A stretch of 64,000 nucleotides of DNA from an uncultured Chlamydiaceae bacterium (GTDB lineage Bacteria; Chlamydiota; Chlamydiia; Chlamydiales; JAAKFR01), in the NCBI GenBank assembly GCA_942490925.1, contig CALNYX010000017.1, forward strand, positions 888,143 through 952,142, given 5' to 3'. Below are positions 10,601-64,000 of the stretch, piece after piece; the first letter of the stretch is position 1; each line of letters starts with the position of its first letter. The notes below the pieces were generated by a model. That model was not told where the DNA came from and ran no database searches. It saw nothing but the letters and a program-made list of their open reading frames with translations. The position numbers and the translations under genes are program-made.

Positions 10601-13178
10601 AAAAAGCTCGCTTGCATTTGAAACGGTCTATGCCGAAGGACAACGCCGCTACATCGAATCGCTCTCCCCCTATGCGCGTCAGTTTGTCCGTCAAATGCCC
10701 AAGCCAAAAGTGGGACATATCGAAGGACTCTCCCCAGCTGTTGCCATTGAACAGAAGCTCTCTGCTGGAAATCCCCGCAGCACAGTTGGAACGCAAACTG
10801 AGATCTATGACTATTTGCGTCTACTCTTTGCCCAAGCTGGAACGGCCTACTGCCCCGAGACTGGAGAGGTGATCAAACGGATCACACCTGAAGATGTCGT
10901 GACCCATATTTTAGATTTTCCTCAAGGGGAGCGGATCACTCTGCTTGCTCCAATCAGTCTCGAGAAACAAGACTCCTTTGAAGAGCGTATCGCACACTTC
11001 CAAAAGATGGGTTTCTTGCGCATTCGTTTGAATGAAACGCTCTATGAGCTTGATGAAACGATCTCGTTTGATCGGAAACGGAAAAATGAACTCGCCCTTG
11101 TCATCGATCGTCTCAAGGTGGATCCAGATAATCGCTCGCGGCTATTTCAGGCTGTTGAGAGTTGCGCAAAAATGGGCAATGAGAAAATTTTGGTGATGCG
11201 TGGTGATGGGAAAGATCAGCTCTTCAACCTTGCTTTTGCGGTGGAAAAAACAGGAAAATCCTACCGCAAGATCACGCCTCACACGCTCTCTTTCAATAGC
11301 GCTGAGGGAATGTGCCCCGATTGCCAAGGGTTGGGGTATCAATATGGCGCAAATCTCATGCAGAACCAAGCCGTGATGGAACACTCTTTGCGCGGTCTTT
11401 TGCGCACGATTTGGACGCATGATTCCCTTCCATTTTTTGAAACCTTTTTGGGAAAAAAGGGAATCGACTTTGACCTCCCCCTTGAAGAGTTGAGCACTGA
11501 TCAGCTCCAGTTGATTTTCAATGGATCTGATGAGCTGATCACGACAAAAAGAGGTTTTGCCTGCAAATGGCTCGGGATTCAACCGATTTTAGCGCGCGCT
11601 GGAAAAGGAGCTCATCGCGAGATTAGAGCCCCGCTTATTCCCCTGCTTGATGAGATCGAATGTTTCTCTTGTTTGGGCTCCAGGCTCAATCCCCTCGCAC
11701 GTAATGTACGCATTGAAGGACACTCCATCTCCTCTGTTTGTCAACTACCTATTGAAAAAGCTCTCCCTTTCATCGAATCGCTTGAAACTCCCACGCTTCT
11801 CGATGAGGTGATGAAACAACTCAAATCTCGCCTCCGTTTTTTGATAACCGTCGGTCTCAACTATCTCACGCTCGATAGGCGCGCTCCCACCTTGAGTAAT
11901 GGAGAAGCCCAACGGATTCGCCTTGCCAGACAGCTCGGCAGTGAGTTGACAGGCGTTCTCTATGTTCTTGACGAACCAACAATCGGCCTCCATCCACACG
12001 ACAATGAGAAACTCAACGGCGCTCTAAAACAACTCAAAGCCCTTGGCAATACCTTGCTCATGGTTGAGCATGATCCGCTCACACTTGCCATCGCCGATCA
12101 CCTGATCGATTTTGGCCCAGGCGCCGGCATCCTTGGAGGACACATCACGGCGCAAGGCACCTATGAGGAGATTTGCAACAATCCCAACTCTCTGACTGGC
12201 GACTATTTATCAGGCAGAAAAACCATTGATATTCCACAAACAAGACGCAGTCCAAAGGGGTATTTTAGCATTGAAAATGCCTGCAAACACAACTTGAAGA
12301 ATCTAACTCTTGAGTTTCCCATAGGCGTGATGAGCTGTTTAACAGGCATTTCAGGTTCTGGAAAATCAACCTTGATGCACGCTGTGATCAAACCGATGAT
12401 CACTCCCCTTGTGGCAAAAAAAGAGCCTTTCAACAAGCTCATTGTGATCGACCAAAATCCGATTGGTCAAACTGTGCGTGCAGACGTGGGAACCTACAGT
12501 GATGTGCTTCCTGTCTTTCGTCAGTTTTTCTCTCAACTAGGAGCTGCACGCACCAAAGGATTGCAACCAAGACACTTCAGCTACAATCACAAAAAAGGGA
12601 TGTGTACCAACTGTTGGGGACTAGGCTATAAAAAGGTCGAAATGCTCTTTCTTCCTCCCGTGAAAGTGACGTGTGATCAGTGTGAGGGAATGCGCCTTAA
12701 TCCTGTCAGTCTCACCGTTGACTATCAAGGGATGCACTTTGGCAACTTGTTACAATTGACCATCGAAGAGGCGCGTGCTCAGTTTGAGCTCTTGCCAAAA
12801 GCCCAGCGCATTTTAGATACACTCATCTCAGTTGGACTCGGCTATTTAAAATTAGGCCAAGAGATCGCATCTCTATCTGGAGGAGAAGCGCAACGGATCA
12901 AACTCTCTCGAGAGCTTGCGAAGCGTGGCACAGGCAAAACACTCTATCTACTTGATGAGCCAACAACAGGGCTCCATGCAGATGATGTGAAGAAGCTTCT
13001 CGCTCTACTCCAACGTCTTGTAGAAAAGGGCAACACCTGTATTGTGATCGAACACAACGTTGATGTGATTCGCACAGCCGATCATGTCATCGACCTTTCA
13101 GATGGTGCCATTGTAGCTCAGGGGACACCTGAGGAGATCAAAAAGGTGCCACACTCTTTGACAGGAAACTATCTTTGA
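7644..13178 (+). CDS. uvrA: excinuclease ABC subunit A, tandem-duplicated (two complete UvrA modules in one ORF)
   Basis: There are two full sets of UvrA hallmarks: 4 Walker A loops ([36 protein letters not shown]), 4 [16 protein letters not shown] signatures and CxxC zinc modules in each half. The second module restarts at [14 protein letters not shown] near nt 10500. Confidence 0.95.
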
Positions 13179-13193
13179 GCTACGTTTTGCTCA

Positions 13194-13550
13194 ATGAATA
13201 TTATACATGTGGCACGGATCTATCCAAAAGGTCGGCCTAAGTATCTCTTCTTAAAAAAAGAAGACTCAAAGTATTGCTGGGAAAAGACTGACTGCGAAGG
13301 AACTACGTCTGTCCAAGCGATTCGAAATGCCGAGAAGAGGTGGAAAGATGAGTTTTTTCAACTCGTCCATTGCGGATTTCGCTATTCACTCCCTACAAGA
13401 GATGAAGTTGGTGTGAACGCCAATTTCATGCAGATGGCCCAAAGCTATAGCGCTTCAAACGGACGCTACTTTGATCAAGATGCAGGCCATCTCTGTTTTG
13501 TCGATCTCGCATCCAAAGAGGCATTAGAGATTTGGAAAAAAATCCGCTGA
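13194..13550 (+). CDS. hypothetical protein (118 aa)
   Basis: ORF lies 15 nt after the uvrA stop and overlaps the pknD start by 19 nt. I recognised no family and saw no obvious SD. Confidence 0.45.
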   Translation: MNIIHVARIYPKGRPKYLFLKKEDSKYCWEKTDCEGTTSVQAIRNAEKRWKDEFFQLVHCGFRYSLPTRDEVGVNANFMQMAQSYSASNGRYFDQDAGHLCFVDLASKEALEIWKKIR

Positions 13551-16246
13551 CAACGATCGAGCACTACCAAGTGCGTAGCACTATTGGTAAAGGGGGTATG
13601 GGAGAGGTTTTGCTTGCCTACGATCCTCTTTGCGAGCGTGAGGTTGCTATCAAGCGCATTCGGCCTGATCTTACGGGCCATCAGGCGCTTGTTAAACGCT
13701 TTCATCGAGAAGCTAAAATCAGCGCAAGTCTTACCCACCCTGGCATTATCTCAGTCTACTCCATTGGCAAAGATTACTACGTCATGCCCTACGTTGCTGG
13801 CAAAACATTCAAACAAAACATCTACCAAGATCAACTCTCAATTGCTTCGCTGTTGCCAATCTTTCGCACCGTCTGTCAAACCATTGCCTATACCCATTCG
13901 AAAGGGATTTTGCACCGCGATCTCAAACCTGAGAATATTTTGGTCGGAACCTTTGGAGAGGTGATTGTCCTCGACTGGGGTCTTGCAGTTGCAATTGGCT
14001 CTGATGAAGAGGGTGTTGAAGAGATTGAGGTCGATGCTGAGATCACTAACCCTGGAAAACTCGTTGGGACAGTCGCTTATATGGCTCCGGAGCGCGCCAA
14101 AGGTGAAAAAGCTAACATTCAAACGGATGTCTATGCTCTAGGTGTCATCCTCTACCAAATCCTAACACTGCGCCTCCCCTTTGAACGCCCTCCTCTCAAA
14201 GAGTTTGTGAAGCAACTCAAACCTCGCTACATTGAAGCAACTGATCCTGAAGAAATTGCGCCCTATCGCGATGTACCCCCTCAACTCTCCCGCATCGTCA
14301 AAAAAAGCTTAGAGCCAGATCCAAAAAACCGCTACAACACTGTTGATGAACTGCTCGTTGATTTAATGGACTACCTTGAGGGACGCTCCCAATGGTTGAA
14401 AACAGCCGCTTTGAAAACTGAAGAAAAAAAACATTGGCAGTTCCAAGAACATGTTTTGATCACCAAGCACCTTGCTCTCACCGGAAGCGCAGAGGCCACA
14501 GAGTGGGTCAATGTTATGCTCTCGCGCGCCGCTTTTTCTGAAAACATTCGCTTGGAAACCCGCATTTATCTCGATGAAGGAGGCGCAGGCCTTGGCTTTC
14601 TCATCAACGTCCCTGAAGCTGCTGAGCGGAGCGATCCCTTTGATGGTTACTGCCTCTGGCTTGGAAGTGAAGAGAGTGGCGCCTCAGTTTTGTTTCGCAA
14701 CACCGTCGAAGTGCTTTCCCTTCCCGATCTCTATGTAAAAAAGGGGCAGTGGCACACCATTGTCCTTGAAAAACTCGACAATAAAATCACCCTCCTTCGC
14801 AATGGTAAAGAGGTCTTTAGCTACATCAGCTACCTTCCCCTCTCAGGTACACATGTCGGCCTACTTTCCTGCGATGCCAACTTCAAAATTGACGACCTTG
14901 TCATCAAAGTTGGCAGCCAAAACCTGACCGTCAGCTGCCTAGCAATTGCCGACGCCTTTTTAGCCCACAAAGATTTCAAAACTGCTTTTGCCCAATACCA
15001 AAGAATTGCAGAATCTTTCTCAGGCTATACTGAAGGGCGTGAAGCACGCTTCCGCGCAGGCATCACACTCCTAGAACAGGCCTCTGTTGAAAAAAATGAG
15101 CACTACTTCCAACTTGCCCTTGAAGAATTTTCTCGCCTGCATAGTACACCAGGAGCACCTCTAGAATATCTTGGCAAAGCCCTTGTCTACCAAGCACTCA
15201 AAGATCACCTCGAAGAGATCAAATCCCTAGAGCTTGGCCTGCGCCGCTACTACAAACATCCACTTGTTGCCCCGCTGCGCGAACAAATCGCTTACCGCAT
15301 GCATGAAGCGGCGCAAACAGATCGCCGTTCAGCCTACCATCTCATGCTCATAGCCTTGCGACTTTTGCCTGAGGTTGTCAAAAAAGAAGATTCGAAACGT
15401 CTATTTTCTCACCTCATCAAACATTGGGAGCCGCTTCCCTTTCTCGAAAGCCTTCTCGATCCCACCTTTGCCGATGGAAAACCCGCAGCGTCACGCTTTG
15501 CAATTCCTCTTGCCTTTTGGCTTGCTGCGCCCTACACCCTCTTAGAAATCTTCCAAGAGGTGCAAGAAGATACAACTGCTGCTCAAGATATTCTCTACTC
15601 ACTCTTTGAACTTGGATCCTATGGACTGGCACAAAAACTGATGGGAACCTTCAAAGCTGAACAACTTCAACCCCTAGCCCTCTGCCACAGCGTCTCGCTA
15701 GAAGAGGCTTGCAACAACCTCAACCCCAAACATTTTCGCATCTACAGCTACCTCATGCGCTTTGCCTTGCGCAATGACCAAGAAGAGTACGTGCACCAGC
15801 TTGCCAAAGAGTTAGAGGAGACTCCCCTCTCGAGCCAAGACCGCATCCTATGTGATGCCTACCGCATTTGGGCCTACTTGAAACAAGAAGATGCCAGCAG
15901 TGCAGGAGCAATTTTCGATACCTACCCCCTTGAGCTGCTCAACCAAGAGACAACACTGCTCCACCCACTTTTTGGCTGCTACCTCCACCTTACCGAAGGA
16001 GAAGAGATTGCCAATATCCACTTTGCAGGAGTGATTGAAACCCCATTTCCACGTTCGTGGGCACTGCTCAGCCACGAACTCACCAATCAAGTGACCCAGA
16101 CACCGGGCTGGTATAGCACCTCCTTTATGTGGGAGCGACGCCACCTCTACCGCCTCCTCACCCTCTACTACACCATTAGTGAAAATCCAGAACTCGAAGC
16201 CTACTACCGTGGGCTCGAGAGAGAAGAGTACATCTATGCTGAATAA
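13532..16246 (+). CDS. pknD: Ser/Thr protein kinase with large C-terminal non-kinase region (PknD-like)
   Basis: Hanks kinase motifs GKGGMGEV, AIK, HRDLKPENIL, DWGLA and GTVAYMAPE. The C-terminus has a beta-rich lectin-like segment followed by helical repeats. From memory, the gene is close to valS as in Chlamydia (here a Nudix gene and a small minus-strand ORF intervene). Confidence 0.9.
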   Translation: MEKNPLTTIEHYQVRSTIGKGGMGEVLLAYDPLCEREVAIKRIRPDLTGHQALVKRFHREAKISASLTHPGIISVYSIGKDYYVMPYVAGKTFKQNIYQDQLSIASLLPIFRTVCQTIAYTHSKGILHRDLKPENILVGTFGEVIVLDWGLAVAIGSDEEGVEEIEVDAEITNPGKLVGTVAYMAPERAKGEKANIQTDVYALGVILYQILTLRLPFERPPLKEFVKQLKPRYIEATDPEEIAPYRDVPPQLSRIVKKSLEPDPKNRYNTVDELLVDLMDYLEGRSQWLKTAALKTEEKKHWQFQEHVLITKHLALTGSAEATEWVNVMLSRAAFSENIRLETRIYLDEGGAGLGFLINVPEAAERSDPFDGYCLWLGSEESGASVLFRNTVEVLSLPDLYVKKGQWHTIVLEKLDNKITLLRNGKEVFSYISYLPLSGTHVGLLSCDANFKIDDLVIKVGSQNLTVSCLAIADAFLAHKDFKTAFAQYQRIAESFSGYTEGREARFRAGITLLEQASVEKNEHYFQLALEEFSRLHSTPGAPLEYLGKALVYQALKDHLEEIKSLELGLRRYYKHPLVAPLREQIAYRMHEAAQTDRRSAYHLMLIALRLLPEVVKKEDSKRLFSHLIKHWEPLPFLESLLDPTFADGKPAASRFAIPLAFWLAAPYTLLEIFQEVQEDTTAAQDILYSLFELGSYGLAQKLMGTFKAEQLQPLALCHSVSLEEACNNLNPKHFRIYSYLMRFALRNDQEEYVHQLAKELEETPLSSQDRILCDAYRIWAYLKQEDASSAGAIFDTYPLELLNQETTLLHPLFGCYLHLTEGEEIANIHFAGVIETPFPRSWALLSHELTNQVTQTPGWYSTSFMWERRHLYRLLTLYYTISENPELEAYYRGLEREEYIYAE

Positions 16247-17166: not shown

Positions 17167-20100
17167 ATGGAAGAACTACCCAAAGCTTACGATCCTAAGC
17201 TCACCGATGTCAAATGGTCCCAATTTTGGGAAGAGAATGGCTTTTTTAAAGTCGACCCCACATCTGACAAACCAGCCTACTCAATTGTCATTCCCCCTCC
17301 TAATGTCACAGGTGTGCTCCATATGGGACACGCTCTTGTCAACACCCTTCAAGACATTCTGATCCGCTGGAAAAGGATGAGTGGCTACGAAGCATTGTGG
17401 ATGCCAGGAACCGACCATGCCGGCATTGCCACACAGACTGTTGTTGAACGTCATCTGATGCAGAGTGAAGGAAAAAGACGGAGCGACTACGATCGAGAGG
17501 TTTTTCTCAAACATATCTGGGATTGGAAAGAGAAGAGCGAAACAACGATCCTCAAACAGCTCAAAAGTCTCGGTTGCTCATGTGATTGGTCAAGACTCCG
17601 TTTTACCCTGGATGATGGCTGCAGCCTAGCTGTTCGCACCATGTTCAAAAAACTTTTTGATGAAGGGCTGATCTACCGTGGCGACTACCTTGTCAACTGG
17701 GATCCAGTCACTCAAACAGCCCTTGCTGATGATGAAGTCGAATACGAAGAGCGTGAGAGTTATCTCTGGTATTTCAAATACCATCTCGTCGATGGCTCTG
17801 GCTATGTGCATATTGCCACGACACGCCCAGAAACCCTTCTTGGTGATACAGCCATCGCCGTCTCCCCCAAAGATGAGCGTTACAAGCATTTGATCAACAA
17901 AAAAGTGCGCGTTCCATTTGTCGATCGCGAAATTCCCATCATTGCTGACCCCTACGTCGACCCTGAGTTTGGAACAGGCATGGTCAAGATCACTCCTGCC
18001 CACGATCCAAATGACTACAAGATTGGTCTCAATCACAATCTGCCCATGATCAATGTGATGACAACTGATGGGCGCATGAATGAGAATGCTGGCCCCTTCC
18101 ATGAAATGAGCCGTGAAGAGGCAAGGGAAGCTGTTGTTCACCAGATGAAAGAGCTTGGGCTGCTTGATAAAACAGAGCGCTACAGCTTGCGCGTTGGGAT
18201 CTCCTACCGCTCTAAAGCAATTATTGAACCCCTTCTCTCTAAGCAGTGGTTTGTCAAGATGGAGTCGTTCAAAGAGAAGCTTAGAGCAGCTGTCAATGAT
18301 GAGCGGGTCAAGATTCTGCCACCCTCTTGGAAACAGACCTATTTCCACTGGATCGATAACCTGCGTGACTGGTGCATCAGTCGACAACTTTGGTGGGGAC
18401 ATCGCATCCCCGTTTGGTACAACAAAGAAGATCCAACGCAGATGCGTTGCTCCACAGAAGAGATCGATGATGAAATGTGGGAGCAAGATCCTGACGTACT
18501 CGACACCTGGTTCTCTTCAGCCCTATGGCCCTTTAGCACCATGGGCTGGCCCAACAAAACTCCTGAGCTTAAAAAGTTCTATCCCAACAGCGTGCTTGTC
18601 ACTGGACATGACATCCTCTTTTTCTGGGTAGCACGCATGATTGCAATGGGAGAGCACGCGCTTGACAAAGTTCCTTTCCCTGAAACTTTCCTCCATGGCC
18701 TCATCTATGGCCGCTCCTACTGGAGAAATAATAGCGATGGAAGTATCACCTACGTCGCTGGCGAGGAGAAAAAGCAATATGATCTTGGCAAACAACCTCC
18801 AAAAGAGGTGCACTCCAAGTGGGAAAAACTCTCCAAGTCAAAAGGCAATGTCATTGATCCTCTCGAGCTCATCGACGAGTATGGCACCGATGCTGTGCGC
18901 ATGTCCCTCTGCGCCTGTGCCAACCAGTCTCCACAAATCGACCTCGATCGCAGACGGTTTGACGAATTTAAAAACTTCGCTAACAAAGTGTGGAATGGTG
19001 CCCGTTTTGTCTTCATGAACCTCTCTGACCTGACAGACAGCGAGCTCGACCAAAACTTTGAGCTTGCACTTGAAGACAAATGGATCCTCTCTGCAATGGG
19101 ACGCGTCAATCGGCAAGTCAATGAGAGCCTCTCCAACTACCACTTTGATCAAGCTGCTCAACTCTCCTACGACTTTTTCTGGAAAGAGTTTTGCGCCTAC
19201 TACGTTGAATTTTCTAAACCGATCCTCTTTGGTGACGACAAAACAGCTCGCAAAAACAAACAGAAAATCCTTGCTACTGTGCTGAGCAATAGCATCCGTC
19301 TTCTACACCCGATGGCACCCTTTATCACAGAAGAGCTCTACCAACTGCTTAAAAAGCAGTTTCCCTCTCTTCTTCCTGAGCCAGCTTGCATTGTTGCCCC
19401 CTACCCACAAGCATTGCCAGAGGATGAAGCAATCCATGAGCAGTTTGCGCACATTGAGAAAGTGATCTACACCATCCGAAACATCCGCGGCGAGATGAAA
19501 ATTCCTCCACATATCGCTACAGATGTCTATCTCATTGGCAATTTCCCGCAAGAGCAGACCAGACTCATCGGCGCACTTGTCAAGACAACCCAAATCATTT
19601 GCACCGACAAAGCTCCAGAGTTTCCGCTCAGTGCAACAGGCGTTGTCGGAGAGCTTACCATTCTCATTCCACTCCCTCAGGAACTTGCTGATAAAGAGAA
19701 GCAGCGGCTTGAGAAAGAACGCGAGAAGCTTGAAAATAGCCTCGCTCGCCTCAAACAGTTGCTCGACAACCAGGACTTTCTTGCCAAGGCAGCTCCTGAG
19801 TTGATTGAGAAGAAAAAAAGCGAGCTGAGCTCCACTCAAAATGAACTCAACAGCTTGAATGCTAAATTAGTTGTGAATAAATACACCTTCAAACCCTACA
19901 ACGCTCAATACCCCCACTTGTTTGCTGTAGAAAAATCTCGTCTTACTGAACATATCCAAGCCGACATTCAACATGTTGGCAGCACAGCAGTTCCGAACCT
20001 AGGCGGAAAAGGAATTATTGATATTGCCATAGCAACCGAGAGTATTGAAGAAACCTCAAAGCAACTAGAGATGTTGGGATATGAATTTCATAAAAATGGG

Positions 20101-20343
20101 AGTACAGCTGAGCGGTTATTTTTCCGCAAAGGACACGAGTATCACATCCATTTGATGCACCCTAACAGTCAAGAGTTAAAAGATCTGATTATTTTCAGAG
20201 ATTTGCTCAAAGCAGATCTAGAAGTTATGCAGCAATATGCTGAGATCAAAAAACGCGCAAATGGGAATAAAACGCTCTATCGAGAACTTAAAAAGCAGTT
20301 GATTGAGCCTACCCTTTCCTTCTGGAGAAGGAAAGCACCATGA
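17167..20343 (+). CDS. valS: valine--tRNA ligase fused in frame to a C-terminal GrpB-family domain
   Basis: Class I HIGH (HMGHA) and KMSKS-like (KLSKSKGN) motifs, a ValRS editing/CP1 region and a C-terminal coiled coil ending ...LNSLNAKL. About 158 aa of GrpB-like sequence follow with no stop (HVGSTAVPNLGGKGIIDIAI, HIHLM, FRDLLKAD). Confidence 0.9.
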   Translation: MEELPKAYDPKLTDVKWSQFWEENGFFKVDPTSDKPAYSIVIPPPNVTGVLHMGHALVNTLQDILIRWKRMSGYEALWMPGTDHAGIATQTVVERHLMQSEGKRRSDYDREVFLKHIWDWKEKSETTILKQLKSLGCSCDWSRLRFTLDDGCSLAVRTMFKKLFDEGLIYRGDYLVNWDPVTQTALADDEVEYEERESYLWYFKYHLVDGSGYVHIATTRPETLLGDTAIAVSPKDERYKHLINKKVRVPFVDREIPIIADPYVDPEFGTGMVKITPAHDPNDYKIGLNHNLPMINVMTTDGRMNENAGPFHEMSREEAREAVVHQMKELGLLDKTERYSLRVGISYRSKAIIEPLLSKQWFVKMESFKEKLRAAVNDERVKILPPSWKQTYFHWIDNLRDWCISRQLWWGHRIPVWYNKEDPTQMRCSTEEIDDEMWEQDPDVLDTWFSSALWPFSTMGWPNKTPELKKFYPNSVLVTGHDILFFWVARMIAMGEHALDKVPFPETFLHGLIYGRSYWRNNSDGSITYVAGEEKKQYDLGKQPPKEVHSKWEKLSKSKGNVIDPLELIDEYGTDAVRMSLCACANQSPQIDLDRRRFDEFKNFANKVWNGARFVFMNLSDLTDSELDQNFELALEDKWILSAMGRVNRQVNESLSNYHFDQAAQLSYDFFWKEFCAYYVEFSKPILFGDDKTARKNKQKILATVLSNSIRLLHPMAPFITEELYQLLKKQFPSLLPEPACIVAPYPQALPEDEAIHEQFAHIEKVIYTIRNIRGEMKIPPHIATDVYLIGNFPQEQTRLIGALVKTTQIICTDKAPEFPLSATGVVGELTILIPLPQELADKEKQRLEKEREKLENSLARLKQLLDNQDFLAKAAPELIEKKKSELSSTQNELNSLNAKLVVNKYTFKPYNAQYPHLFAVEKSRLTEHIQADIQHVGSTAVPNLGGKGIIDIAIATESIEETSKQLEMLGYEFHKNGSTAERLFFRKGHEYHIHLMHPNSQELKDLIIFRDLLKADLEVMQQYAEIKKRANGNKTLYRELKKQLIEPTLSFWRRKAP

Positions 20344-53629: not shown

Positions 53630-54679
53630 TTGCTATGCTGCTTCCCAATGACATGTTGTGAACGCATATTTTCTGGAATGGCTACGGTTGGCTCAACAAT
53701 TGGGCAAGCTCCGGCTTGCCTTTCTAGGTTTTTCTCTGGGGTTGGAACTGCCTGTGCTAACACAAATGAAGCAACTTCTGAGACCCTTGCTTCTAGAACG
53801 AGCTGCATTACCTCAAGCTGCACCGGATTTAGTCGCACAGTCTATGATTGGACCTTAGAGCCAGTTGGCCGCGCTTCTTGCAAGACCGCAAATTTCATGC
53901 GCGCTCACTGGAAAGATCTCCTTGGCAATGCACTCGCTTGGGGAGCGATTATCGTCCTATGTGGCGCCTTGCACGGCTTTCAAACTGTTTCGCTTCCCAT
54001 GCTCATTGGTACCGGAGCTGGAATTGCAGTTGGCAGTTTAACGGGCATTGTGACCGCTAAACTTTTTGGTGAGAAGGCAAGAGAGAAAACAATCTGGGGT
54101 CTTTTTAACTCTAATATCAACAAACTGCCTCCAAATGGAACAAAAACCCTTCTTTTGGCTGTTGCAACTTCTGCCTATCTCCTGGCAGCGAGCATCATGC
54201 CACATGCAATGGGTGGGATCACGGGACTGATTGTGGGCAATCTGGCTGTGACCATGATTGCATTGACAGCTGCTAAGTGGAGTGATCGTAGAGACGAGGT
54301 TGGCATCACTCGGGAGGAACAAAAAGAACTTGATGGACTGCTACAGAAACGTGAAGATCGTCAATTGGTAAAAGCGGATGAAGTCCGTCGTGCAGTCGAA
54401 CTCTTAAGGCAGAAGGCGTCTAGTGTGCGCACAACGGATGAGACAACAGCTCTTCTTGACCTCAGATCAAAACTCCAAGCGCATGAAACACGTGGAATCC
54501 TAGATGATCAAGCTGGACGCATCCAAAACTTGGAAGCTCAAGTGCAGCAACTTCAAGCGCAACTAGAGCGAGATGCAACCGCAAGACAAGAAGCTGCTGA
54601 GCAAGCACTCGTTGCAGCCCGTGCAGCTTTACCACCCCCTTTATATGGATCTCCAAAAGCTGAAAAACCTCCCGAGTGA
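53630..54679 (+). CDS. Inc-like membrane protein (two bilobed hydrophobic domains plus a C-terminal coiled coil); start uncertain
   Basis: Hydrophobic pairs occur at aa 98-116/121-145 and 172-190/194-215. A charged heptad-like region follows (aa about 225-330, for example IQNLEAQVQQLQAQLERD). The N-terminal 90 aa or so are Ser/Thr/Cys-rich. Alternative Met starts are at 53648, 53678 and 53897, and none has a clear SD. Confidence 0.55.
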   Translation: MLCCFPMTCCERIFSGMATVGSTIGQAPACLSRFFSGVGTACANTNEATSETLASRTSCITSSCTGFSRTVYDWTLEPVGRASCKTANFMRAHWKDLLGNALAWGAIIVLCGALHGFQTVSLPMLIGTGAGIAVGSLTGIVTAKLFGEKAREKTIWGLFNSNINKLPPNGTKTLLLAVATSAYLLAASIMPHAMGGITGLIVGNLAVTMIALTAAKWSDRRDEVGITREEQKELDGLLQKREDRQLVKADEVRRAVELLRQKASSVRTTDETTALLDLRSKLQAHETRGILDDQAGRIQNLEAQVQQLQAQLERDATARQEAAEQALVAARAALPPPLYGSPKAEKPPE

Positions 54680-55031
54680 GCAGGTCTATCAACAGATCAT
54701 GCTTTTTGGAAAACAACTTCCTCCCTTTGACCCTGAATGGAAAAAGGAAGAGAATCTTGTACCTGGCTGTCAAAGCATAATGTATCTCCATGCCTCGCTC
54801 AAAGAGGGACGTCTCTATTTTGCAGCGCATAGTGAAGCGCTCATCTCAGCTGGCCTAGCCGCTATCCTCATCTCTGTATATGACGGTGAAACACCTGAAA
54901 CAATTTTGAAAGCTGAGCCAACCTTCCTCGAAGAGCTCAATATCCCAGGCAGTTTGACGCCAGGGCGTGCCAATGGATTGGCTAGCTTGTGGCTGAAGAT
55001 GAAGCAAGCTGCTCTGAAGGCTTTGATCTGA
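54645..55031 (+). CDS. sufE: SufE-family sulfur acceptor protein
   Basis: ENLVPGCQSIMYLHA (the active-site Cys context), ALISAGLAAIL and LTPGRANGLASL. ATG 54645 gives a family-typical length of about 128 aa; the track ORF begins at 54573. Confidence 0.85.
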   Translation: MDLQKLKNLPSEQVYQQIMLFGKQLPPFDPEWKKEENLVPGCQSIMYLHASLKEGRLYFAAHSEALISAGLAAILISVYDGETPETILKAEPTFLEELNIPGSLTPGRANGLASLWLKMKQAALKALI

Positions 55032-56646
55032 GATCGAACTCGAGTTTCCATTCTCCGCACCAGAGTTCCAAAACACCCAGCTCTGTCACTTTGGCTGTAA
55101 GCTTCACAAGTACGGCCTGCTTCCCCTCTCCTTTCAAGACTGTCTCAATTGGATGAAGCTCCTGCAATTCTCGAAGGGGAAAGGTTTTTCCCACTTCATT
55201 TGGGGCAGGATGGGCAAAGAAGCGAAAAATTGCTGGTTGATTGACAGTAAGACTAAAGGTCTCATCGAGCGTGACGCTGCTCCCCTCTTCCATGCCAAAT
55301 GGAACGATACAGACTGCTTTGAGTGGTGGTGGAATTCCCGGAACGGCTGGCGCCGCTCCCTCAACACCGATGTAGTAACTGCGAGCTGTGCCGGCACGCA
55401 CACGTATCCCCTGTCCAGCACGCACCTTGCCGTAGTAAGCTGCGCCAAGGCTCACGCCAAAGTCAAGGTCTGCATCTGGCAAGATTTTGACGTCTGCTCC
55501 CCACATAGCGAGCTGTTGCAATAGACGTTTTTGAAAGGCATCCGCTTTCATGGTGCCGCCATTGAAAAGAATGGCGGTTGGCAATTCGAGCAGAAAATTG
55601 GCGAGTTGCGCAGTGATGCGCGGATCACGCACATAGGGAAGTGCCAGTGTAGAAAGACCAGCTGCTGGTTGCCTTTCAACTTGCTCTTCAAATGGGACAA
55701 GTGGAAAAAATCCTTCGACAAGCAGCTGCTGTACTTCATCTCTGCTCATGGTAGCTGTCAAGGCTCCTCCAATCAGGCTGCTGCCCCGACCTGGAATCGT
55801 GAGATCAACTTGATCAGGGGCATTTTCAGCTAGCAGCTTCTCTTTGGCTTGACGACAGACATGCACTAAACTTGTGAACTGCCACTCATCAAGCTCTACA
55901 GCAAACTTCTCTTTGGCCATGTAAGCAAGAGCGAGATCCATGTTATCACCACCAAGTAGGAGGTGTTCACCGACAGCTTTCCGTTCAAGCTCGAGGTTTC
56001 CTTCTCGTTCCTGCACGGTAATCAAGCTAAAGTCGGTGGTTCCTCCACCGCTATCCACAACGAGAACGGTGTCTCCAACCTTGAGATGTTGGCGCCAATC
56101 CTCTTCATGCTTGGCAAGCCAGGCATAAAAAGCAGCGAGTGGCTCTTCGAGCAAAACAACGGAGGGGTAACCGGCAAGCTCGGCTGCCTCTTGCACGAGT
56201 TGGCGAGCTGATGGATCAAAGGAGGCGGGCACTGTGAGGAAGACTGTCTGATCGTCAATATGACAGGCTTTTTTGATGTGTTTTAGGTAGGCTCCGCAAA
56301 CTTCGAGCGGGCTTTTCCCTTTGAGAATTGGAGAGCGACGATCGATGCCAGCGTGCGCAAGCCACGATTTGGCAGAGTGAATGACTTGGTCGGGAACTTC
56401 AACGCTCCGCTCTCTTGCATAATGGCCTACAACTCCCTCTTCATAGAAGGAGGGAAGTGTTGGTTTCTCAGCGATCAGATCGCGGTCTATCTGCTGCTCA
56501 ATCGGAGCAATTTTACCATCGATTGCGACGGTACAGTTGGTGGTGCCTAAATCAATGCCAATCACACTTCCACCTCTGCAGGACAAAGGATTGTCTGGTC
56601 TGACTCTCGAATCTGCTTGGGTAGATCCTGCTTTTGCGCTTGCCAC
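54982..56646 (-). CDS. Hsp70-family (actin-fold) ATPase, non-DnaK type; probable true start is GTG 56565
   Basis: IGIDLGTTNCTVA, LTVPASFD, LEEPLAAFYAW, VVDSGGGTTDFSLI, LGGDNMD and LFNGGTMK motifs. The beta-rich C-terminus is short and there is no helical lid. GTG at 56565 overlaps the upstream TGA (GTGA). Confidence 0.85.
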   Translation of the reverse strand: MASAKAGSTQADSRVRPDNPLSCRGGSVIGIDLGTTNCTVAIDGKIAPIEQQIDRDLIAEKPTLPSFYEEGVVGHYARERSVEVPDQVIHSAKSWLAHAGIDRRSPILKGKSPLEVCGAYLKHIKKACHIDDQTVFLTVPASFDPSARQLVQEAAELAGYPSVVLLEEPLAAFYAWLAKHEEDWRQHLKVGDTVLVVDSGGGTTDFSLITVQEREGNLELERKAVGEHLLLGGDNMDLALAYMAKEKFAVELDEWQFTSLVHVCRQAKEKLLAENAPDQVDLTIPGRGSSLIGGALTATMSRDEVQQLLVEGFFPLVPFEEQVERQPAAGLSTLALPYVRDPRITAQLANFLLELPTAILFNGGTMKADAFQKRLLQQLAMWGADVKILPDADLDFGVSLGAAYYGKVRAGQGIRVRAGTARSYYIGVEGAAPAVPGIPPPLKAVCIVPFGMEEGSSVTLDETFSLTVNQPAIFRFFAHPAPNEVGKTFPLRELQELHPIETVLKGEGKQAVLVKLTAKVTELGVLELWCGEWKLEFDLRSKPSEQLASSSATS

Positions 56647-57023
56647 CCTTTGTGGCGAAGCACTCCTTTATAAGGAGCATTTCCTTTCACTTTTCCGACA
56701 ACTTTGATTGCTGAGTGGTCATACCCTTCTGGAATCAGCACTTCTTGCCCTTCACCCTCTTTCAGGACGGGACGGATACTTACCCACTCTTCAAGGCTCT
56801 GCGCGCAATCTTGATGGATGTTGCGCACAGCAGCTCCGATTTGCGCATCTGAAAAAGAGGCGATATCTTCCTTGAGAAAATCGATGAGTCTCCCCTGCTT
56901 TTGCAACAAGTAGAGCAATTTGAGATGAGAGGGATCTTGTTTCTCCTCTTTCCCATCAACAAAAGCTTTTGCTTCGTTTTTGTTTTTCAATGCTTTGAAA
57001 AAAGCTCTCAATGCTAACATCAT
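56562..57023 (-). CDS. DUF2760-like protein (Hsp70-associated)
   Basis: LLYLLQKQGRLIDFLKEDIASFSDAQIGAAVRNIH...GVLRHKGWQA...LCPAEVEV matches my recollection of the DUF2760 family, which is typically adjacent to Hsp70-like genes. Confidence 0.7.
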   Translation of the reverse strand: MMLALRAFFKALKNKNEAKAFVDGKEEKQDPSHLKLLYLLQKQGRLIDFLKEDIASFSDAQIGAAVRNIHQDCAQSLEEWVSIRPVLKEGEGQEVLIPEGYDHSAIKVVGKVKGNAPYKGVLRHKGWQAQKQDLPKQIRESDQTILCPAEVEV

Positions 57024-60598: not shown

Positions 60599-62137
60599 AT
60601 GTTAAGACTTATTGCCACTATTATCCTTTTTCTCTCCTCAGCCCTTCATGCTGATATACAAGCCATCCTTTTTGGCGCTGAAATTCCAGGTTCTCAATAC
60701 TTTGCTGCCGATCTTGAAAAAAGAGGCTATGTCGTTGATCTCTCCTATGAAGTGAGTCCTGACTCTGTTATCTTACTCTCAGACACCTCAGATATCCTTG
60801 AAATGATCCCTTTTCAAGACATGCCAACACTCCTTGAAGAGCTTGTAGCTCATGGAATTAACATCCCCTATCGCTATGTCTGTGTAGAAAATCATGAACT
60901 GTGGACAGAAGCTCTCGGCAATCCCCAAGACACACCTATCTTACTCATCTGTGGTGCTGGCTGTCATGCTCACTTCTGGAATGATTACATCTGCCAAAAA
61001 CTCATACAACAAGGTTACTACGTCATTCGTTATGATCACCGAGACGTTGGACTTTCATCCGCTTCGGATGAACCATATGATCTAGATGTCCTCGCTGAAG
61101 ATGCTATTCAAATCATTGATGCTTACAATCTTGACAATGTACATTTAATTGGTCATTCGATGGGGGGATTCATTTCGCAACTTGTGGCTGCTCGCTATCC
61201 AGAAAGGATTGCAAGCCTCACATTGATTGGCACTGGCCCTGTAGGTCCAACTCGTCGAAATGAACAACCCATGACCGTCCAAGAAATTGCGACAGTCGCC
61301 CAAACCATGCATGTCATGTTTTCTCATGGACTGTCTGCTGACTTTGAAAAAACACACATCGCTTTTCATTCAATTTGGGAACATCTTAGTGGTAATACAC
61401 TTGTTGAGGCAAGCCTCACCTACCCCTATGTGCATGAAATGTACACACGCACGCGTCCTCACCATACTTCGGGCTATAGTCATTTTTCAGCCATCCAAAA
61501 GATGATCAAGACACTTGAGACACGGCGGGGCATTTTTGAATTCATCCAAGCTCCAGCGCTTATCATTCATGGAGCATTAGATCCATTGATCTTGCCCCAA
61601 AGGGGTGGCATTGCTTTACATGATGCCCTTCCTAACTCAGAGCTCCTTCTTATCCCTGAGATGGGACATGTTTTTTTCAACGAAACCCTTGAAGATCAAA
61701 TCTTCACAACCTTTCTAAAATTTATGCAAAAACAACAAAGACCTCAAACAGTCGTCGGCCTACAACAACGCATCTCCTCTGGCACAGCATTTGAAGAGAT
61801 CAAAAATCATTGGGAGCATTTTGAAACGGCTGACTTCCCGCTTGAAGAGAGAGGTGATCTCGTTGCAATTTACTCTGATTATGAAGGGGATGAAACACAA
61901 CCCTACAACCTAACTATTGGCTATTTTGTAGATGTTGATAAGGCTCCAGAGGGCTGGACACTCAAACAGATCCCAGCAGCTAATTATGGACATATTCATG
62001 CTGACGGCCCCATTCCTGATAGCATTGTCTCGGCTTGGCAAAAAGTGTGGCAGAGTTCTTGGAATCGGAGTTTTCAATACGACTACGAAGTCTATGGTGA
62101 GCAAGGCATTGATCTCTATATTGGCGTCAACGCTTGA
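60599..62137 (+). CDS. secreted three-module protein: unknown N-domain + alpha/beta-hydrolase + GyrI-like/Cass2-type effector-binding domain
   Basis: Signal peptide (LFLSSALHA). Hydrolase nucleophile elbow GHSMGG, with HGALDP and EMGHVF as triad candidates. The C-terminal 125 aa or so (FEEIKNHWEHF...YSDYEGDETQPYNLTIGYFV...YEVYGEQGIDLYIGV) resembles GyrI-like ligand-binding domains. Confidence 0.75.
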   Translation: MLRLIATIILFLSSALHADIQAILFGAEIPGSQYFAADLEKRGYVVDLSYEVSPDSVILLSDTSDILEMIPFQDMPTLLEELVAHGINIPYRYVCVENHELWTEALGNPQDTPILLICGAGCHAHFWNDYICQKLIQQGYYVIRYDHRDVGLSSASDEPYDLDVLAEDAIQIIDAYNLDNVHLIGHSMGGFISQLVAARYPERIASLTLIGTGPVGPTRRNEQPMTVQEIATVAQTMHVMFSHGLSADFEKTHIAFHSIWEHLSGNTLVEASLTYPYVHEMYTRTRPHHTSGYSHFSAIQKMIKTLETRRGIFEFIQAPALIIHGALDPLILPQRGGIALHDALPNSELLLIPEMGHVFFNETLEDQIFTTFLKFMQKQQRPQTVVGLQQRISSGTAFEEIKNHWEHFETADFPLEERGDLVAIYSDYEGDETQPYNLTIGYFVDVDKAPEGWTLKQIPAANYGHIHADGPIPDSIVSAWQKVWQSSWNRSFQYDYEVYGEQGIDLYIGVNA

Positions 62138-63997
62138 CTAACGAGGACGCGTCGTAATCCTCTCGTAAGCTGCCATGACAATTTTGTGTAACATCTCTGA
62201 GTACTCAATATTGGCGAAACCTGCCATATAATTGAGTTTGCCATCCCAACACCATCCTGGGTTTGGATTGACCTCTAGAAGTTTGATTCTACCTTGAGCA
62301 TCTTTCCTAAAATCAAACCGCGCATAATCACGACATCCTAAACGCTCAAAAAGCTGGCATGAACTATCGGTTAGAATCCGAAGTTCTTCTTCAGTAAGCT
62401 GCGCCTGCTTGTAACTAATGTGATTCCAATAAGGTGAGTCAGGTAACCATTTGGATTCATAGGAGAGGATACGCGGAAGCTTCTTAGAAAGGCGGCTATA
62501 GTCGACTTCAAGGATAGGGAGCACCTCAAAGTTGAGGGTATTTCCAATAACCCCTACACTATATTCAGTGCCAGATAGAAATTCTTGGATCAAAATCGGT
62601 ACGTTGGGCACAAGCGTTTTAAGTCGATCATAGTAATTGAGAAGCTCATCAGCATTGTGAACCACAGCTTGTTGCAAAATTCCAATTGAGCTGTCCCCAT
62701 TTGCAGGTTTTAGAAATGCGGGAAAATTGTTTGGAAGTGCTGCAGAAGAATTATTCGGATCAATCCAAATCTCATCAGGAACCAGAATTTCTAATGATTG
62801 CGCCACCGTGCGCGTCAGGGATTTATCATAGCATGCTGCTAAACAAGCAGGCCCGGCTCCTGAATAGGGGATATTGAGCATTTCCAAAAGAGCTGGAAGG
62901 TGTAATTCTTTTGTTGCGTCATTATAAAACCCCTCATCGCAAAGATTAAATACAAAGGTTGGAGGTGACTTGCTAAGAGATCTAATCAGTGATTGATGGT
63001 TATCAAGGTAGGTAAATTTAAAATCCAGTAGATGTCCAAGCGCCTCTTTGAGGTTATTGATTGTTACAAAGTCCTCTTCATTAAATTGCCCCTCTTTTTT
63101 GACCATATCCGGCAACGAGGGATCTCCCATAAGGACAGTACAGGCAATTTTTTTCTTTGCTAAATGTGGTTGTTGTAGAATTTTTTTAGGTGCTCGGGCT
63201 TTGAGGGTCACCCGATGTGCCATCATACCTAAGTCTTGCTCCCTTGAGGAGAGAGAAATGACATTATCCAAAAACTCAATTTCATAAAATCCTGCGCGCT
63301 CTAGCAATGCTTGAAGGCTTTTATAGCAATAAAGTCGTTCTGCATAAAATTGATCGGCGATTACCCCTTTATCAACCTCTATCACCACCTCTCTACAAAT
63401 GAGCCGAGTACAATCCTCCGAGAGATGACGCTCCCGACAGACTAAAAGAGACTGATCTATCCACTCCCAACTGCGTGGTTGGTAGTTATTTTGAATCCAT
63501 TCACCGTTAGTTACATCTAAATAGATGGCTCCTTGAGAAGTGAGGATACGATTCACCTCTTGAAGCACCTTGAGATCATCGTCCTCATGTTCAAAATATC
63601 CGAATGAATTGCCTAAAAGAGTGACGATATCAATCGAGCAAGAAGGCAATCGTAATTTTCGTGCATCACCCTCAGAGAAGCGCGTATAATGAGAGACTTC
63701 CTGAGAACGAGCTCGAGAACGTGCTAATCGAATCAAATAGCGAGAACGGTCAATTCCACTGAGTTGTCTATAGCCCCGCTTTGCCAACTCCAAAATATGC
63801 CGTCCTTGACCACAACATAAGTCTAGGAGCTTGTGCGACTCAGTGGCACCTGTAGCCTTAATGATGCTATCCACTTCATTTTTTGTGTTTTCATCATTTT
63901 CAACTACGTCAGCATCAGTCTTAAGATACAGGGAATTGAATAGATCACGCCACCATTCGGTAGGAAGATGTTTCTCAAGATCAGCAATGGGGCCCAA
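62138..63997 (-). CDS. class I SAM-dependent methyltransferase fused to a D-Ala-D-Ala-ligase-like ATP-grasp enzyme (5' end probably outside the window)
   Basis: The N-terminal half has SAM motif I LLDLCCGQGRH, then GIDRS and IVTLLGNSFGYF. The C-terminal half has FNLCDEG, NIPYSGAG, FLKPANGDSSIG, EFLSGTEYSVGVIG and ARFDFR...IKLLEVNPNPG. The ORF reaches the window edge, where the track start is only a TTG. Confidence 0.8.
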   Translation of the reverse strand: MGPIADLEKHLPTEWWRDLFNSLYLKTDADVVENDENTKNEVDSIIKATGATESHKLLDLCCGQGRHILELAKRGYRQLSGIDRSRYLIRLARSRARSQEVSHYTRFSEGDARKLRLPSCSIDIVTLLGNSFGYFEHEDDDLKVLQEVNRILTSQGAIYLDVTNGEWIQNNYQPRSWEWIDQSLLVCRERHLSEDCTRLICREVVIEVDKGVIADQFYAERLYCYKSLQALLERAGFYEIEFLDNVISLSSREQDLGMMAHRVTLKARAPKKILQQPHLAKKKIACTVLMGDPSLPDMVKKEGQFNEEDFVTINNLKEALGHLLDFKFTYLDNHQSLIRSLSKSPPTFVFNLCDEGFYNDATKELHLPALLEMLNIPYSGAGPACLAACYDKSLTRTVAQSLEILVPDEIWIDPNNSSAALPNNFPAFLKPANGDSSIGILQQAVVHNADELLNYYDRLKTLVPNVPILIQEFLSGTEYSVGVIGNTLNFEVLPILEVDYSRLSKKLPRILSYESKWLPDSPYWNHISYKQAQLTEEELRILTDSSCQLFERLGCRDYARFDFRKDAQGRIKLLEVNPNPGWCWDGKLNYMAGFANIEYSEMLHKIVMAAYERITTRPR

Positions 63998-64000
63998 ACA

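Follow-up and report, generated by a model that had tools for sequence, protein, structure and literature searches.

The gene described here lies at the end of a 64,000-nucleotide (nt) stretch of DNA from an uncultured Chlamydiaceae bacterium (contig CALNYX010000017.1, positions 888,143 to 952,142), referred to below as the window. It encodes a single polypeptide in which a class I S-adenosylmethionine (SAM)-dependent methyltransferase is fused to an ATP-grasp ligase related to D-alanine--D-alanine ligase (Ddl) and VanA. We put at about even the chance that this protein is a self-contained ligase and α-N-methyltransferase, predicted from its sequence relatives to make a small, dipeptide-like N-methyl-aminoacyl conjugate. 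An earlier reading of the nucleotide sequence (the original prediction) had proposed that two steps lead to a small methylated amide or peptide; that is still the best reading, and it is better grounded now that the methyltransferase half is seen to be kin to NmbA, an α-amino N-methyltransferase. The product classes named at that stage (compatible solute, cell-wall-like dipeptide, polyamine conjugate) are speculative candidates.

The fusion gene is real and intact. Within the window it forms a single open frame on the minus strand (62138 to 64000), with 620 codons and a stop at 62138-62140. The TTG start at 63997 in the list of open reading frames (ORFs) is a window-edge artefact, since the frame runs off the window; as originally proposed, the 5′ end is cut there. 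The N-terminus was recovered from two sources, a full-length protein found by protein database search (P0001; 646 amino acids (aa), 100% identical to the window frame) and an independent Logan assembly (contig L001, 13 kb). The window end falls at position 4377 of L001 and the ATG at position 4299, 26 codons past the window end, with an in-frame stop 3 codons further upstream. L001 and the window are base-identical for 5,783 nt from the window end, the whole fusion gene included. A chimera of two genes joined by faulty assembly, the failure envisaged in the original prediction, is ruled out by this identity, by the presence of the same architecture in thousands of homologous proteins, and by the existence of a split form. 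Beyond about 58217, near the boundary between a permease and a porin gene, L001 is out of register with the window, owing to an indel or an assembly difference.

Profile searches recovered both halves separately. The Pfam methyltransferase models (Methyltransf_25/11/31) match aa 55-165 with expectation values (E) of 5.5e-16 to 3e-13, Dala_Dala_lig_C matches aa 424-608 (E 9.8e-22), and the NCBIfam Ddl models align to aa 326-612 (E 5e-33). Pfam, NCBIfam, and PDB sequence and fold searches all agree with the covalent pairing of a class I methyltransferase and a Ddl-type ATP-grasp ligase first read from the sequence. The domain boundary, placed at that time near nt 63157, was correct to within about 15 nt, and the motifs cited in support are all present (LLDLCCGQGRH, GIDRS, LLGNSFGYF, FNLCDEG, NIPYSGAG, FLKPANGDSSIG, EFLSGTEYSVGVIG, and ARFDFR..LLEVNPNPG). 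An AlphaFold2 (AF2) model of the fusion protein had a mean local confidence (pLDDT) of 85.5 and a global score (pTM) of 0.66. Residue numbers follow P0001; residues were mapped by sequence alignment, and invariance was counted in 120 homologues. The features of the gene, all on the minus strand, are as follows:

62138 to 64000 (-): methyltransferase/ATP-grasp fusion gene, its first 26 codons beyond the window end.
63188 to 63982 (-): NmbA-like class I SAM methyltransferase (aa 33-297), with Rossmann core, N-terminal cap strands, and four-strand cap; from Pfam, PDB 9RI2, and AF2 secondary structure.
63797 to 63829 (-): methyltransferase motif I, LLDLCCGQGRH, the SAM-binding glycine loop; D86, G90, G92, R93, and H94 invariant (120 of 120).
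63743 to 63757 (-): GIDRS, with acidic residue D110 at the end of β2, a SAM ribose contact (motif II, as defined for NmbA; PMC12719100).
63593 to 63613 (-): GNSFGYF, motifs IV/V; Y161 and F162 correspond to NmbA Y134 and F135 (adenine stacking), from alignment and invariance.
63143 to 63187 (-): interdomain linker, variable and Lys-rich, KKILQQPHLAKKKIA; alignment columns unconserved, pLDDT dipping to 60 in the 301-310 block.
62153 to 63142 (-): Ddl-type ATP-grasp ligase of three sub-domains (aa 313-642); from Pfam, NCBIfam, VanA/Ddl alignments, and Foldseek.
63068 to 63127 (-): family-specific N-domain loop GDPSLPDMVKKEGQFNEEDF, in place of the Ddl GGxSxExEVS segment that holds Glu15.
62930 to 62947 (-): NLCDEG signature, in place of the Ddl 'LHG' (His63) segment; N378, C380, E382, and G383 invariant.
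62681 to 62716 (-): FLKPANGDSSIG, with ATP-binding K457 (DdlB K144) and the Ser-Ser loop S463, S464 (S150, S151); by alignment, invariant in 120 of 120.
62555 to 62596 (-): ILIQEFLSGTEYSV, adenine and ribose contacts Q498, E499, L501, and E505 (DdlB E180 to E187); by alignment and conservation.
62447 to 62461 (-): YESKW in the ω-loop; K543 corresponds to DdlB K215, and W544 stands at the position of Tyr216 (DdlB) or His244 (VanA); by alignment, invariant in 120 of 120.
62237 to 62320 (-): RFDFR...LLEVNPNPGWCWDGK; R587, D589, E602, and N604 correspond to DdlB R255, D257, E270, and N272 (Mg, transition state); by alignment and conservation.

The closest solved structure to the methyltransferase half is 9RI2_A, labelled 'Methyltransferase, putative' (E 5.8e-21 over aa 41-265, single sequence). 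It is NmbA of Chlorobaculum tepidum (CT1040), which catalyses the SAM-dependent N-methylation of bacillithiol at its cysteine amino group (PMC12719100). NmbA was also the top PDB match of the family profile of the whole fusion (E 1.5e-29, 105.7 bits), the next methyltransferases scoring 1e-16 or worse; profile positions 39-265 align with NmbA residues 14-237, a span that takes in both the N-terminal cap strands and the four-strand cap. The two proteins are 33% identical over 215 aligned positions and, in addition to the generic SAM motifs, have in common GRH after motif I (LDIACGAGRH in NmbA), SFGYFE, PR(S/T), and E(E/R)R.LSE. Residues D86, G90, G92, D110, Y161, and F162 are invariant in all 120 homologues, and D138 is Asp in 119. 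In the AF2 model strands 202-248 follow the Rossmann core; the exact cap topology is not reliable from AF2, and AlphaFold is reported by the NmbA authors to mis-predict it (PMC12719100). The other characterized relatives in the PDB are also amine N-methyltransferases, namely CypM, which acts on the cypemycin N-terminus, and glycine/sarcosine N-methyltransferase, and a methyltransferase encoded apart from its ligase in one genome scored best against the NCBIfam glycine/sarcosine and daptide N-methyltransferase models. By these sequence relationships the methyltransferase half is probably an NmbA-class, α-amino-directed N-methyltransferase. There are also differences. NmbA stands alone, as a 266-aa protein co-occurring with bshA-C (PMC12719100, PMC6282198), whereas the fusion domain is tied to a ligase, differs in length, falls at 33% identity below the 35% floor of the NmbA authors' similarity network, and is found in lineages that include ones not known for bacillithiol.

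Kinship with NmbA leads to a narrower version of the N-methyl conjugate proposal, in which the product would be a low-molecular-weight thiol: cysteine would be joined to an amine scaffold, in the step ascribed to BshC or a GshF-like one, and then N-methylated to give N-methyl-bacillithiol (N-Me-BSH) or a new N-methyl-cysteinyl thiol. The NmbA relationship is specific and covers the whole domain, cap included; the acceptor-site loops of the ligase hold invariant tryptophans (W544, W551, W609, and W611) of a kind that would be typical of sugar-binding sites; and genes for the N-Me-BSH pathway have been reported from Waddlia, a basal chlamydia (PMC6282198). Genomic context was surveyed by calling ORFs in 81 loci, clustering them by all-against-all BLAST, and scanning the neighbours with Pfam; among the 73 loci analysed, no bsh gene adjoined the fusion gene in any. 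The family is, moreover, common in Alpha- and Gammaproteobacteria and present in a chytrid, all expected users of glutathione; neither these two proteobacterial classes nor the chytrid are reported to have bshA/B. A thiol product seems to us quite unlikely.

The ATP-grasp half matches VanA at E 2e-22 and Ddls at E 1e-18 to 1e-12, and Foldseek comparison of the AF2 model with Ddl and VanA chains covered some 340 aligned columns, with E of about 1e-19 and target-normalised template-modelling (TM) scores of 0.7-0.83 against the Ddl chains. With Ddl and VanA (EC 6.3.2.4; PDB 2DLN, 1IOW, 4ZQI, 1E4E) it has in common the three-sub-domain fold (Foldseek TM about 0.8), presumably the acyl-phosphate, amide-forming chemistry, and the Ddl residues K97, K144, S150, S151, E180, E187, K215, R255, D257, E270, and N272, but overall identity is only about 21-24%. 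Catalytic residues were mapped by HMMER alignments to VanA, Pseudomonas aeruginosa DdlB, and Yersinia pestis Ddl (306 aa, like Escherichia coli DdlB). The counterpart of DdlB K97, K419, is Lys in 119 of the 120 homologues, and K457, S463, S464, Q498, E499, E505, K543, R587, D589, E602, and N604 are invariant in all 120; the ATP- and Mg-binding residues on which the original assignment depended are thus in place. The N-terminal sub-domain is too divergent for HMMER, the alignments to Ddl and VanA beginning at about aa 390. There, GDPxLPD...NxED replaces the Ddl Glu15 segment and NLCDEG the His63 segment. Toward the C-terminus, invariant W544 stands at the ω-loop position on which choice of the second substrate depends (Tyr216 in DdlB, His or Phe in Van or Lac ligases), and the lid around it (YESKWxPDSPYW) is longer than in Ddl and likewise invariant; G613 and K614, within NPNPGWCWDGK, replace Ser281 and Leu282 of Ddl.

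A true Ddl is ruled out by the invariant changes at the D-Ala site (Tyr216 to Trp, Ser281 to Gly) and by scores below every NCBIfam Ddl or Van cut-off: 114.1 bits against 243 for NF002378, 113.2 against 245.65 for TIGR01205, 80 against 775 for the VanA model, and 67 against 520 for the D-Ala-D-Ser model. The gene had been set apart from canonical Ddl in the original prediction, and rightly so. Unlike Ddl and VanA it is fused to a methyltransferase and stands outside any mur or dcw context; neither the window nor L001 nor any of the 73 loci analysed has a mur gene next to it. A HMMER search of 1.84 billion cluster representatives placed 361 clusters in its ATP-grasp subfamily at E up to 1e-30, as against E of 1e-12 to 1e-22 for canonical Ddls in the PDB. 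By score, then, the ATP-grasp half is a distinct subfamily, well separated from canonical Ddl, and the gene should not be counted as Ddl in peptidoglycan reconstructions of Chlamydiae and Planctomycetes.

A link to peptidoglycan could take another form: the enzyme might be an additional ligase for D-Ala-D-Ala or D-Ala-D-X, or one that works on the stem peptide or cross-bridge, and the methyltransferase would be an accessory to it. Ddl and VanA are the best characterized relatives, and stand-alone members of the ATP-grasp subfamily, 47-55% identical, lie inside the dcw cluster of two contigs from the Candidate Phyla Radiation (CPR; L085 6001-10969 and L087 6001-11123), between murG and a MurL-like gene. 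The order there is MurD, FtsW, MurG, the ATP-grasp protein, a weakly MurL-like gene (in L085), and a double ATP-grasp protein of about 807 aa, an arrangement that suggests unusual stem-peptide chemistry in these CPR lineages. The separate double ATP-grasp protein is the much better Ddl, however, its C-terminal half scoring 188 bits as Ddl in L085, compared with 114 bits (cut-off 243) for the fusion protein, which reaches 80 of 775 as VanA. The Glu15 segment, His63, Tyr216, and Ser281 are all invariantly replaced in the fusion, which lies beside mur genes in none of 73 loci; N-methylated D-Ala-D-Ala would present MurF with a secondary amine; and the fusion occurs in a chytrid, while fungi have no peptidoglycan. 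We regard a peptidoglycan ligase as improbable, to about the same degree as the thiol synthase.

The N-methyl conjugate proposal can be written as a two-step mechanism. With ATP and Mg2+, the Ddl-type domain would convert a carboxylate to an acyl phosphate and couple it to an amine; the donor would most likely be an amino acid with a free α-amino group, and the acceptor a second amino acid or another carboxylate-bearing amine. In Ddl, Glu15 binds the ammonium of D-Ala1. In the fusion protein the donor ammonium would probably be held by E335 and D336, which stand at the start of helix 334-348 in the AF2 secondary structure, at the helix position of Glu15 (a match in secondary-structure register only). 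The NmbA-like domain, with SAM, would then methylate the free amino group of the aminoacyl amide, as NmbA does on the cysteine of bacillithiol; in an alternative order, the amino acid would be methylated before ligation. We infer that both reactions fall on one metabolite, most simply in the first of these orders, with nitrogen as the methyl acceptor and a small molecule as the substrate.

The original prediction took the gene for something out of the ordinary in this genome, but it is one member of a large, already sequenced, uncharacterized family. Searched against 5.8 billion proteins, the fusion protein gave 5,622 matches at E up to 0.001, generic methyltransferases and Ddls included; the best 120 of these are all 612-683 aa long, 55-74% identical, and of the same two-domain architecture. 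In all, thousands of proteins of 610-680 aa pair a methyltransferase with an ATP-grasp domain, as the database search for the architecture suggested at the outset has now established, and a scan of one genome per GTDB species found the fusion in at least 566 species. Homologues occur in Chlamydiae (Simkaniaceae, Waddliaceae, Parachlamydiales), Planctomycetota, Alpha-, Beta-, and Gammaproteobacteria, Nitrospirota, Nitrospinota, Omnitrophota, Sumerlaeota, and Dehalococcoidia. Among the GTDB species are the cultured Hyphomicrobium zavarzinii and Filomicrobium insigne, and metagenome-assembled genomes of a Candidatus Kuenenia and a member of the Bathyarchaeia; the chytrid fungus Polyrhizophydium stewartii has a 790-aa version. 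In one genome the protein is split, a 327-aa methyltransferase gene overlapping a 338-aa ATP-grasp gene. The family signatures DLCCGQGRH, SWEWID, GDPxLPD, NLCDEG, YESKWxPDSPYW, and NPNPGWCWDGK are all found in the window protein. Mean pairwise identity in the 120-sequence alignment is 0.62 in each half, as expected for one functional unit.

The sequence itself is thus not new, thousands of copies having been deposited, and both halves are known kinds of enzyme. The combination, its breadth, and the link to NmbA are undescribed as far as could be checked: database names for the fusion proteins are only 'methyltransferase domain-containing protein' or 'D-alanine--D-alanine ligase', Pfam and NCBIfam hold no model specific for the methyltransferase/Ddl-like fusion, and full-text literature searches found no paper describing it.

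Conservation of this degree also bears on the possibility that the enzyme modifies proteins or peptides, the ATP-grasp domain adding an amino acid to a protein carboxylate (a C-terminus or Glu side chain, as with RimK or tubulin-tyrosine ligase (TTL)) and the methyltransferase acting on the same target. Identity averaging 62% across phyla in both halves would suit such a role, as would the lack of a metabolic operon partner, the fusion of relatives to SET (a protein-lysine methyltransferase fold), leucine-rich repeats (LRR), or an S9 peptidase, and the carboxypeptidase-type genes adjacent at some loci (M32, AstE/AspA, and one MATCAP). Yet Ddl and VanA, which are ligases of small molecules, come closest in both sequence and fold, and the protein matches no RimK, TTL, or LysX model (for Pfam RimK and TTL, at E up to 0.01). 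The nearest methyltransferase kin act on free amino groups of small molecules or on a peptide N-terminus, and no conserved candidate substrate gene adjoins the fusion gene. We consider a protein modifier unlikely, if somewhat less so than the thiol or peptidoglycan alternatives.

The relatives with other architectures include both stand-alone and fused forms. Stand-alone members of the ATP-grasp subfamily are 335-350 aa long. One member is fused to a GNAT acetyltransferase (P0224), another forms a triple fusion of methyltransferase, ATP-grasp, and SET domains (P0178), a third, from the choanoflagellate Barroeca monosierra, joins ATP-grasp to an S9 prolyl oligopeptidase (P0226; 1,153 aa), and a fourth, from Lokiarchaeia, carries LRR repeats before the ATP-grasp domain (P0155; 1,210 aa). 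The fusion partners are mostly amine-modifying enzymes or peptidases, which speaks for the N-methyl conjugate proposal. On two contigs from DPANN archaea (L088 6001-7403 and L089 990-2374) a stand-alone ATP-grasp gene is followed by an ORF of 102-108 aa with a partial match to Diphthamide_syn (Dph2).

Genomic context gave the enzyme no constant companion. Neither clustering nor Pfam scanning of the 73 loci found a universal operon partner, which fits a self-sufficient enzyme, or a conserved neighbouring small protein that might serve as ligase substrate. The absence of a conserved partner, together with the presence of the gene in reduced genomes and in a fungus, points to common metabolites as substrates. 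Synteny was restricted to lineages (RsmB, GuaA, and GuaB in Hyphomicrobiaceae; RluD and RpoH in Stellaceae). By raw counts, a peptidase or amidohydrolase gene was adjacent at about a quarter of the loci: an AstE/AspA-type deacylase at 6 (Planctomycetota and one Gammaproteobacterium), an M32 carboxypeptidase at 3, M24 at 3, an α/β-hydrolase at 5 (of 71), and MATCAP at 1. An ornithine-decarboxylase-type gene was present at 5 alphaproteobacterial loci.

At the locus of the window, the genes upstream encode a histidine phosphatase, MYG1, HIT, an isochorismatase, and a HEAT-repeat protein. Downstream, tail-to-tail with the fusion gene and with no intergenic base, is a plus-strand gene (60599-62137) for a 512-aa protein. 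Its α/β-hydrolase domain is closest to the macrolide esterases EstT/EstX and the aclacinomycin methylesterase RdmC (E 1e-24 to 2e-38); a Cass2/GyrI-like ligand-binding domain makes up the C-terminal part, and the N-terminus looks, by eye only, like a signal peptide. Beyond it follow an M24 peptidase, a BBP7 porin, and an aromatic amino-acid permease. Two of these neighbours were considered as functional partners and rejected: the α/β-hydrolase with Cass2, which has the look of a secreted esterase, is without a counterpart next to the fusion gene at any other locus analysed, and an M24 peptidase was seen again at only 2 further loci, with 29% identity. In a Simkaniaceae relative, whose fusion protein is 73% identical, the gene is flanked by a large glutamate dehydrogenase gene upstream and hrcA-grpE-dnaK downstream.

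The convergent hydrolase enters into one further alternative, cryptic O-methylation, in which a transient carboxyl methyl ester would direct or protect the ATP-grasp ligation and then be removed by the adjacent α/β-hydrolase. Precedent exists in cystargolide and belactosin assembly, where cryptic carboxyl O-methylation by the methyltransferase CysG is combined with ATP-grasp ligases and a hydrolase (PMC11427300). As proposed for the fusion, SAM-dependent methylation and ATP-grasp ligation there fall on one small peptide; the enzymes, however, are separate and encoded in a secondary-metabolite cluster, whereas the fusion stands alone and is of the N-methyltransferase type. The relationship of the neighbour to methyl- and macrolide esterases (RdmC, EstT/EstX) is in favour of this scheme, as is the adjacency of α/β-hydrolases at 5 of 71 loci. 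It is opposed by the nearest methyltransferase kin, which are N- and not O-methyltransferases, and by the hydrolase itself, which appears by eye to carry a signal peptide, has no homologue beside the gene at other loci, and is absent from the Simkaniaceae locus. Of the alternatives, we find this one highly improbable.

Several observations weigh against the N-methyl conjugate proposal as well. For an enzyme that builds small molecules, about 60% identity between phyla is unusually high, and it could indicate a conserved macromolecular substrate. The dcw context in CPR is a hint that in at least part of the ATP-grasp subfamily the acceptor is related to peptidoglycan. The window neighbours are not conserved in the related Simkaniaceae genome, and the association with neighbouring peptidases, judged on raw counts, is modest and heterogeneous. 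Finally, 33% identity to NmbA does not fix the methyl acceptor.

Two known enzymes offer parallels, each with an ATP-grasp domain put to use, within a fused polypeptide, in making a small peptide. Ngg is reportedly a bifunctional N-acetylglutaminylglutamine synthase (GNAT plus ATP-grasp) in the pathway to the osmolyte NAGGN. Like the fusion protein, it is said to unite an N-capping enzyme and an ATP-grasp dipeptide ligase in one chain, and the GNAT-fused P0224, from the fusion's own ATP-grasp subfamily, parallels this make-up. The cap in Ngg is acetyl and the enzyme is said to work with AsnO in an operon, whereas the cap proposed here is methyl and the gene has no conserved partner. GshF is a γ-glutamylcysteine ligase fused to a Ddl-like ATP-grasp glutathione synthetase; as in our protein, a Ddl-like ATP-grasp domain has been recruited by fusion for a small peptide metabolite. 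Its partner is a GshA-type ligase, in contrast to the methyltransferase of the fusion, and no GshF chain appears among the PDB matches of the family profile at E up to 1e-8.

If the N-methyl conjugate proposal is correct, one gene of about 1.9 kb would specify a complete pathway to an N-methylated amide, and hundreds of species have that gene, among them some eukaryotes and the obligate intracellular chlamydiae, whose genomes are small. A bolder version, possible in our view but doubtful, has this one gene account for the whole synthesis of an N-methylated aminoacyl metabolite that is widespread and undescribed, such as a new N-methyl-cysteinyl thiol or an N-methyl dipeptide serving as osmolyte or protectant, in hosts that range over environmental chlamydiae, planctomycetes, hyphomicrobia, nitrifiers, and chytrid fungi; the NmbA-type methyltransferase would then have been recruited from, or to, thiol metabolism. 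The identity of the product would give function to thousands of sequences mislabelled 'D-alanine--D-alanine ligase', take the NmbA class of N-directed methyltransferases, itself newly defined, past bacillithiol, and yield a compact ligase-methyltransferase module for biocatalytic synthesis of N-methyl peptides.

Other genes of the window drew attention apart from the fusion. A double-length UvrA-like protein of 1,844 aa (7644-13178, plus strand) has two UvrA interaction-domain matches and is about twice the usual size of UvrA. A 904-aa eukaryote-type Ser/Thr kinase (13532-16246, plus strand; Pkinase, E 7e-43) has a long C-terminal extension free of domain matches. At 17167-20343 (plus strand), a valyl-tRNA synthetase (tRNA-synt_1, Anticodon_1, Val_tRNA-synt_C) carries a C-terminal GrpB domain at aa 909-1047 (E 2.9e-30), in what looks like an unusual fusion. 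A 349-aa ORF at 53630-54679 (plus strand), adjoining the tuf/tRNA region, has no Pfam match; with its Cys/Thr-rich N-terminus, hydrophobic segments, and coiled-coil-like Gln/Ala-rich C-terminus, it could be a lineage-specific membrane protein, perhaps Inc-like. A divergent Hsp70/HscA-like ATPase of 554 aa (54982-57023, minus strand) scores far under the DnaK and HscA cut-offs; it lies directly downstream of a gene for a 153-aa DUF2760 protein on the same strand, the ends of the two overlapping, and a SufE gene stands opposite this region at 54573-55031.

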